Part shown: in pieces, positions 20,974-23,900 of the stretch | How the letters are laid out: every line of letters begins with the position of its first letter | How positions within the stretch are numbered: the first letter of the stretch is position 1 | Assembly (NCBI RefSeq): GCF_024502345.1 | Contig: NZ_JALDNN010000001.1 | Source of the DNA: Escherichia coli | GTDB taxonomy: Bacteria > Pseudomonadota > Gammaproteobacteria > Enterobacterales > Enterobacteriaceae | Reading direction: 5' to 3' (one strand) | DNA length: 64,000 nucleotides | Made by a program: the position numbers and the translations under genes | Notes under the pieces: generated by a model | The model's input: only the letters and a program-made list of their open reading frames with translations | Databases searched by the model: none | Told to the model about the DNA's origin: nothing

Positions 20974-23900
20974 TTACGCCTTCTCGATGTTGACTAAGAA
21001 CGCTTTATATTCCGGCGTTTGCGAGTTTGCATCACCGACATTCGGCGTCAGAGTGTTAGCGATATAACCTTTACGCGCGACACCCTCAAAGCCCCAGTGG
21101 ATTGGAATACCCACCGTTTCAACCTGCTGACCATTTACATTCAGCGGTTTCAGACGACGCGTTACCACAGCCACCGCGCGGATAAATCCACGCTTGCTGG
21201 AGACAGTGACACGATCGCCATTATTAATGCCTTTCGCCGCCGCCAGCGTTTCGCTGATTTCCACAAACTGTTCCGGCTGAGCAATTGCGTTGAGCAATGC
21301 GTGCTTGGTCCAGGTGTGGAAGTGCTCGGTCAGACGATAGGTCGTACCCACATACGGGAACTGCTCTTTTTTACCCATCCGCAGCGCGTCTTGTTCATAC
21401 AGACGAACAACCGGGTTAGACACCACGTTCGGATGCAGCGGGTTAGTGCCCAGCGGCGTTTCAATCGGCTCGTAGTGTTCCGGGAACGGACCTTCCGCCA
21501 TTTTGTTGATGGCAAACAGGCGTCCCATCCCTTCCGGCTGCATGATAAACGGCCCGGTTGGCGTACCCGGTGCGGCATTGCCGAAGTCAGGAATATCGTT
21601 ACCCGTCCACTTGCTGCCGTTCCACTGGATCAGCATCCGTTTCGGATCCCACGGTTTACCGTTGATATCCGCCGAAGCACGGTTGTACAGCACGCGACGG
21701 TTGAGCGGCCACGCCCAGGCCCATCCCAGCGTATTCCCCAGACCGGACGGGTCGGAGTTATCGCGGTTAGCCATCTGGTTGCCCTGCTCTGTCCAGCTAC
21801 CGGTGTAGATCCAGCAAGAAGATGCGGTTGTACCGTCATCACGCAGATGCGCAAAGCTACTCAGCAACTGACCTTTCTTCGCAATCAGCACGCCATTAGC
21901 ATCATAGAGATCTTCCAGCGCATAGCCGTTGTTCTCTTTTGCCACTTCGTCAGATTGCGGTTCGTGCGGCTGCTTGTAGTTCCAGCTCATCTTCATCAGC
22001 GGTTCTACGCCTTTACCACCTTCGGCCTGGTACAGCTCGCGCAGGTGATGGTAGATACCCGCCAGAATTTCACCGTCGTTACGCGCTTCGCCCGGCGCAT
22101 CCTGACCTTTCCAGTGCCACTGCAGCCAGCGACCAGAGTTAGCGATAGAACCATCTTCTTCAGCAAAGCAGGTCGAAGGCAGACGGAATACTTCAGTCTG
22201 AATAGACGCCGGATCGACATCGTTCGACTCGCCGTGGTTTTGCCAGAAGGTTGAGGTTTCAGTCACCAGCGGATCGATAACCACCATGTACTTCAGCTTG
22301 CTCAGGCAGCTCACCACTTTGTTTTTGTCCGGGAAGGACGCAACCGGGTTAAAGCCCTGGCAGAAATAACCGGTAACCTTGCCTTCGTCCATCATGTTGA
22401 AATACTTGATGACGTCGTAAGTCTGGTCCCACTTCGGCAGCCAGTCATAGCCCCAGTTGTTCTCTTTCTGCGCGGCATCGCCATAGAAAGATTTCATCAG
22501 GCTAACGAAGAACTTCGGATAGTTGCTCCAGTAGTTCACCTGACCAGCCAGTGTCGCTTTCGGCGTGTTCGCTTCCAGATACGACTGCAAATCAACCTGT
22601 TTTTCTGACGGCAGCGTCAGATAACCAGGCAGGCTGGTAGAGAGCAGGCCTAAGTCAGTCAGACCCTGAATGTTGGAGTGACCACGCAATGCGTTCACGC
22701 CGCCACCGGCCATACCCATGTTACCGAGCAGCAACTGGATCATCGCCATAGTACGGATGTTCTGCGCACCGACGGTGTGCTGCGTCCAGCCCAGCGCGTA
22801 CAGGAAGGTAGTTGTGCGATCCGGCGCGCTGGTGGAGGCCAGCACTTCACACACTTTCAGGAAGTCGGCTTTTGGCGTACCGCAGATGTTTTCTACTACG
22901 TCCGGCGTGTAACGGGAAACGTGCTCTTTCAGCAGGTTCCACACACAGCGCGGATGAGTCAGTGTTTCATCGCGTTTCGCATAGCCGTTTTCATCGAACT
23001 GATAGTTCCAGGACGATTTATCGTACTGGCGTTTTTCAGCGTCATAACCGCTGAACAGGCCATCTTCGAAAGCAAAATCATCACGCACCAGCAAGCTGGC
23101 GTTGGTGTAATGCTTAACGTATTCGGCGTTGATTTTGTTGTTTTCGATCAGGTAGCGCAAAACGCCAGACAGGAACGTAATGTCCGTACCGGAACGAATA
23201 GGTGCGTAAATATCCGCTACAGAAGCGGTACGCGTAAAACGGGGATCGACAACGATCAAGGTTGCATCGTTGTTGTTTTTCGCTTCCATCGCCCAGCGGA
23301 AACCGACGGGATGCGCTTCAGCAGCGTTACCGCCCATCACCATCACGACGTTAGCGTTTTTGATATCCACCCAGTGGTTGGTCATCGCACCGCGACCAAA
23401 TGTTGGAGCAAGACTTGCTACCGTTGGTCCGTGTCAGACGCGCGCCTGGTTGTCTACCGCCAGCATCCCGAGGGAGCGGGCAAATTTCTGGGTCAGCATC
23501 CCGGTTTCGTTGCTGGCACCGGAGGCACACAGCATACCGGTAGAAAGCCAACGGTTTACCGTTACACCCTGCTCGTTCTTTTCAATAAAGTTAGCGTCAC
23601 GGTCAGCTTTCATCAGCTTCGCAATACGGGAGAATGCTTCTTCCCAGCTAATGCGCTGCCATTTGTCAGAACCTGGCGCACGATATTCCGGGTAGCGCAG
23701 ACGGTTTTCACTGTTGACGTAATCCAGCAAACCGGCCCCTTTCGGGCACAGCGCACCACGGCTTACCGGATGATCCGGGTCACCTTCAATGTGATAAATC
23801 GCTTCTCTGGCGTTTTTTGCGCCATCACCCAGGCTATACATCAATAGCCCGCAACCTACGGAACAGTATGTGCAGGTGTTACGGATCTCTTTAGCGCGTA

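Follow-up and report, generated by a model that had tools for sequence, protein, structure and literature searches.

The 64,000-nucleotide stretch of Escherichia coli DNA analyzed here, which we call the window, carries on its minus strand a gene that open reading frame (ORF) calling breaks in two. The question raised by this locus is whether the TGA codon at the break ends translation or is read as selenocysteine (Sec). The ORF list gives one piece of 195 aa at 23434..24021 (-) and a second piece of 803 aa at 20974..23385 (-). These pieces share a frame, because 24021 - 23385 = 636, which is 212 codons. When 24021..20974 is translated as a unit, codon 196 is the sole internal stop among 1016 codons, and there is no frameshift. 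Around the TGA, the minus strand reads GCG CGC GTC TGA CAC GGA CCA ACG GTA GCA AGT CTT GCT CCA ACA TTT GGT CGC GGT GCG ATG ACC. A preliminary description of this DNA had proposed that the alpha subunit of formate dehydrogenase is continuous only if this TGA is decoded as Sec and that the ORFs on either side of it are colinear, and the single frame with its one internal stop bears this out. The same description bounded its feature at 23385 and 23436. The TGA end of that span is sound; position 23385 is not a boundary, since it merely belongs to the ATG of Met213 (23383..23385 (-)), an internal codon at which, from the ORF list and the translation, the ORF finder restarts and which is not a real start codon. 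It is only by coincidence that position 23385 lies close to where the hairpin described below terminates on its 3' side.

The product of the full frame matches the PDB chain 1kqf_A, titled 'formate dehydrogenase, nitrate-inducible, major subunit', from end to end (phmmer, 2398 bits, residues 1-1015 on 1-1015), with three substitutions counted across alignment residues 1-989. X196, the non-standard residue of the solved chain, aligns opposite the window TGA, so that the homology to FdnG is full-length and places the UGA at the Sec196 position. We take it that Sec196 ligates the active-site molybdenum in 1kqf. A twin-arginine motif, SRRQFFK, is present at the FdnG N-terminus. Given that identity to the K-12 paralog fdoG, which is located elsewhere on the chromosome (fdoGHI-fdhE), is only 77% for amino acids and 74.6% for nucleotides overall, the gene is fdnG and not fdoG. 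The coding sequence for the alpha subunit of formate dehydrogenase-N, a Sec-containing Mo-bisPGD enzyme, comprises 1015 aa plus a stop codon and occupies 20974..24021 (-) on the evidence of the single frame, the 1kqf_A match, and the RefSeq annotation, and its UGA codon 196 lies at 23434..23436 (-). Both the gene name and the TGA position given in the preliminary description therefore agree with the sequence, with 1kqf_A, and with RefSeq.

If the TGA were a true stop, fdnG would be either a nonsense pseudogene or two separate genes whose products have 195 aa and 803 aa. Consistent with this, ORF calling does yield two ORFs, and the exact 195-aa and 803-aa fragments exist as separate protein records, each on at least 1000 contigs. 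Nevertheless, the TGA stands opposite X196 of a solved chain of 1015 residues, the same TGA with its flanking codons recurs at no fewer than 120 loci from many bacterial orders, and a full-length SECIS element follows it. Furthermore, the 1016 codons contain no other stop and no frameshift, and the 803-aa fragment is without the 17 codons running from the TGA to Met213, which encode conserved FdnG residues. We consider it extremely improbable that the TGA is a true stop, and a pseudogene or a sequencing error was rejected on this same evidence. The fragment records also bear on the statement in the preliminary description that automated annotation routinely splits this gene: the statement holds for naive callers but not for RefSeq, which keeps fdnG as one unsplit CDS. 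In NCBI, one record of the 195-aa N-terminal FdnG fragment (EFN8991448.1) bears the unrelated name 'sulfate ABC transporter substrate-binding protein', apparently a naming error for the split product.

The bacterial SECIS, which is of the FdnG/FdoG type, lies at 23381..23439 (-): these 59 nt match Rfam RF01989 (SECIS_3) along the whole model (positions 1-59 of 59), and the score of 84.3 bits exceeds the gathering score of 63 (E = 1.3e-19). This is the sole gathering-level Rfam match within the 64 kb window. On Rfam RF01988 (SECIS_2), the sister family of the fdhF type, the same element reaches 28.8 bits against a gathering score of 70, and it is filed as SECIS_3 because the SECIS_2 score is under the gathering score. 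By comparison, the fdhF element of K-12 scores 87.1 bits on SECIS_2, while the SECIS of K-12 fdoG belongs to the same SECIS_3 family as the window element and has the same score.

Numbering the element from the U of the UGA, the predicted hairpin spans nt 3-48. In the minimum free energy (MFE) structure, a lower helix pairs nt 3-13 with nt 38-48 (23389..23434 (-)) around an upper stem-loop of nt 15-32 (23405..23422 (-); GGUAGCAAGUCUUGCUCC), which is delimited by the predicted fold together with pairing in homologs. The bases of the upper hairpin are G15 G16 U17 A18 G19 C20 A21 A22 G23 U24 C25 U26 U27 G28 C29 U30 C31 C32, and they fold as ((.(((((...))))))) with the loop GUC at -4.5 kcal/mol. 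The upper hairpin begins 11 nt past the UGA, and the loop begins at nt 23, 19 nt past the UGA. The apical loop consists of G23 U24 C25 (23412..23414 (-)), with G23 and U24 invariant in 86 of the 86 homologs listed. U17 (23420..23420 (-)), in the middle position of a GUA (Val) codon, is bulged, being unpaired in every predicted fold. The published model of a bacterial SECIS calls for a loop of 3-9 nt with a G at its first or second position and a distance of 16-37 nt from UGA to loop (PMC13188914). The window element agrees with this model, being a stem-loop within the CDS and directly 3' of the in-frame UGA, with a small loop that opens with an early G followed by G/U. The preliminary description had expected a SECIS in the roughly 40 nt 3' of the UGA, and the SECIS_3 match, with its hairpin in about 45 nt, confirms that expectation.

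The functional reading of this geometry comes from fdhF, whose SECIS is the experimentally dissected prototype and likewise lies directly 3' of its UGA. For fdhF, the determinants recognized by SelB are U17, G23, and U24, carried in a 17-nt minimal hairpin placed 11 nt past the UGA (PMC8659212). The same review ascribes secondary importance to the lower helix. The bulged U17 and the apical G23 and U24 occur in both elements at identical distances from the UGA, and each element has an upper hairpin that begins at nt 15 and is stacked over a lower helix. The two differ in the length of the upper hairpin (18 nt in the window and 17 nt in fdhF), in their stem sequences, and in the layout of the lower helix. 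By analogy with fdhF, the upper stem-loop of nt 15-32 would be the minimal SelB-binding hairpin of fdnG. The preliminary description had recommended comparison with the fdhF consensus, and that comparison gives a divided answer: the apical GU is present, but the Rfam type is SECIS_3 rather than the SECIS_2 of fdhF.

We conclude with great confidence that UGA196 of E. coli fdnG is recoded to Sec by way of a SelB-bound SECIS hairpin directly 3' of the codon. In the mechanism that we propose, the stretch of mRNA that follows the UGA immediately on its 3' side would fold into the bacterial SECIS hairpin, and the specialized elongation factor SelB, as the complex SelB·GTP·Sec-tRNA(Sec), would bind the upper stem-loop of nt 15-32. 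The fixed distance between hairpin and codon would then allow SelB to deliver the tRNA to the A site upon arrival of the UGA, in competition with release factor 2 (RF2). In formate dehydrogenase-N, the inserted Sec would sit in the active site and ligate the molybdenum. For the source strain, we infer SelB binding, RF2 competition, and Sec insertion from established knowledge (PMC8659212, PMC13188914). Sec insertion at the E. coli fdnG UGA is established by work that PMC13188914 cites as Berg et al. 1991 (pmid 1834669). A full-length FdnG of ~113 kDa that contains selenium has been reported for E. coli (the same work; PDB 1kqf). The fdnG Sec codon with its SECIS is thus a textbook case that is already known, in keeping with the remark in the preliminary description that FdnG recoding is established biology.

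Low-level, SECIS-independent suppression of UGA occurs in E. coli. One might suppose that this UGA is read mainly without SelB or a SECIS, for example by near-cognate insertion of Trp or Cys. Nothing in the present analysis favors such a reading, and the SelB determinants U17, G23, and U24 at their canonical distance, together with the near-universal presence of the Sec machinery in the species, argue against it; we assign it a negligible probability. As to that machinery, neither selA, selB, selC, nor selD, nor any tRNA gene, is present in the 64 kb window; in K-12, a long distance on the map separates fdn from selD, selAB, and selC. Among complete E. coli genomes, taken as a species-level proxy, selAB is found in 5425 of 5426, selD in 5425 of 5426, and selC in 5424 of 5426. 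This coverage equals the near-universal coverage of fdnG itself, and E. coli as a species has the Sec machinery almost without exception.

A further alternative is that the hairpin is no functional RNA structure but a by-product of coding conservation and base composition, with the Rfam match reporting fdnG orthology and nothing more. The location of the element gives this alternative some footing: it lies wholly within a highly conserved peptide, the hairpin region being spanned by ARVUHGPTVASLAPTFGRGAMTN, so that a SECIS_3 match could in principle mean orthology alone. The folding energy can also be cited in its favor. The MFE of a 57-nt segment is -14.6 kcal/mol with a z of only -0.22 (73 of 200 shuffles are equally stable), and that of a 48-nt segment is -13.8 kcal/mol (z = -1.44); neither segment is separated from shuffled sequence by its folding energy. 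The validated fdhF element is likewise unexceptional (z = -0.67), and only the 18-nt upper hairpin taken alone is a modest outlier (z = -2.06). Given these values for the two segments and for fdhF, folding energy was rejected as a criterion. The preliminary description had proposed folding the sequence downstream of the UGA, with the lack of a stable stem-loop counting against recoding. The hairpin is present and exceeds chance by its family match and its covariation, but its stability does not exceed that of shuffles, and because shuffled sequences fold about equally well, the lack of a stable stem-loop would be a weak refutation test.

Comparison among homologs is more informative. We scanned one genome per species with a pattern made of the non-wobble bases of A-R-V-UGA-H-G-P-T-V-A, which yielded at least 120 loci, with 86 distinct 72-mers among the matches listed. 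The set spans Enterobacterales, Pseudomonas, Burkholderiales, Rhizobiales, and others. Positions fixed by the search pattern are invariant by construction in this set, and since the pattern required TGA, the set is silent on the frequency of Cys codons in place of TGA. Positions 18, 21, 27, and 30 are all codon third positions. Pair 21-27, formed by Ala and Leu third positions, is A-U in 63 of the 86 listed sequences, C-G in 19, and G-C in 4, and it is unpaired in none. Pair 18-30, formed by Val and Ala third positions, is G-C in 64 of the 86, A-U in 16, and G-U in 6. Over an alignment of 63 sequences, pairing in the upper helix reaches 99.8%, and 2 of its 7 pairs show both-sided changes (35 cells), compensatory base changes that support the helix; the covariation score was reached by 0 of 500 shuffles. 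When the 3' partners in this alignment are slid by 1-3 columns, pairing falls from 92% to 26-49%.

Two further third positions of the upper stem-loop do not vary at all. G15, the third position of a Thr codon, is invariant among the 86 homologs listed. U24, also a third position, is T in 86 of 86, with either AGT (52 sequences) or GGT (34 sequences) as codon 22-24. In the rest of these genes, GGT makes up 12% of Gly codons and AGT makes up 6% of Ser codons. The paralogs agree with this picture, in that fdnG and fdoG use the same synonymous codons throughout the element, while gene-wide only 57% of their degenerate codons for the same amino acid are identical.

These observations weigh directly on the by-product explanation. 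Some of the A-U to G-C changes do match the direction of genomic GC3 drift, as that explanation would predict. However, the third positions are complementary and not just GC-rich, occurring as GCA/CUU, GCC/CUG, and GCG/CUC with mismatched combinations in 0 of the 86 listed, and U24 is retained as T against a strong codon bias toward GGC, AGC, and TCG in the same genes. The collapse of pairing in the slid-partner controls and the lack of synonymous differences between the paralogs likewise run counter to it. We therefore judge it very unlikely that the hairpin is a mere by-product. Taken together, paralog identity, covariation, and invariant third positions show that the hairpin RNA is under constraint beyond that of protein coding.

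The similarity of fdnG to fdoG extends past the hairpin. The two genes share a perfect run of 71 nt at 23369..23439 (-). This run opens 3 nt upstream of the UGA and extends to 68 nt past the first base of that codon; the next-longest run of identity between the genes is 36 nt. A constraint acting past the hairpin, from +49 to +68, was considered as the cause of this run and was rejected, as third positions there vary in other taxa: the 86 listed homologs show free variation at +51, +57, +60, and +63. Given these free third positions, the roughly 20 extra identical bases are most simply explained by chance together with the Met and Trp codons, and this is probably the origin of that part of the run.

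The lower helix behaves differently from the upper stem-loop in that it can be drawn in two registers. For the window sequence, 10 of 10 pairs form in a register shifted by one, compared with 7 of 9, with two non-pairs, in the Rfam register. Across the listed homologs, about 85% of cells are paired in the lower helix in either register. Among the 86 listed sequences, those with A9/U42 (enterics, the window included) favor the shifted register with 10 of 10 pairs, and those with C9/C42 (Pseudomonas, Burkholderia, and similar taxa) fit the Rfam register with 9 of 9. We tentatively raise the possibility, which we hold to be somewhat less than even, that the lower helix of the FdnG/FdoG type has two registers maintained by lineage through coordinated third positions of two Gly codons. 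If that were true, a single Rfam consensus would misdescribe the enteric members. Alternatively, the register difference may follow trivially from the fact that this helix is largely dispensable.

The surroundings of the gene place it at the fdn locus and not the fdo locus. The next operon gene, fdnH, encodes the beta subunit at 20077..20961 (-) (a 294-aa ORF; 885 nt in RefSeq), and fdnI, for the gamma subunit, follows at 19431..20084 (-) (an ORF ending at 19431, 654 nt in RefSeq, with the start inferred from the RefSeq layout). The spacing from fdnG to fdnH is 12 nt, and fdnI and fdnH overlap by 8 nt. In the RefSeq annotation, fdnGHI is flanked by yddG and narU/narZ on one side and by yddM, adhP, and maeA on the other. 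K-12 fdnG has its Sec196 codon at the same position, the same full model match for its SECIS, the same operon, and the same neighbors (yddG, narU/narZ, adhP, maeA). Nothing of substance distinguishes it from the window, whose DNA shows an identity of about 99% with most E. coli genomes. For this case, the value of the analysis lies in annotation quality only, and it brings no new biology: flagging the Sec codon and the SECIS leads to annotation of fdnG as one selenoprotein of 1015 aa.

The region as a whole is 98.9-99.9% identical to E. coli chromosomes. Over fdnG (window 20900..24100), identity of at least 99% is found only with FDAARGOS_943 and FDAARGOS_944 (99.8-99.9%), and nearly all remaining E. 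coli genomes fall in the 95-99% band, the best listed being 98.9%. FDAARGOS_943 carries IS1 insertions that are absent from the window. Downstream of yddG, the truncated porin pseudogene yddL is represented by a short ORF at 25393..25683 (+), and an intact ORF of 443 aa at 25707..27038 (+) corresponds to a leucine-rich-repeat protein. The counterpart of this latter ORF is frameshifted in the annotation of NZ_CP080070.1; in FDAARGOS_943 it is intact, with an IS1 between it and yddL. Finally, near fdhF in K-12, the gltP-yjcO interval contains five tandem matches to naRNA4 (RF02564) at 912..1432 (+) of the locus segment, which are unrelated to the SECIS finding.
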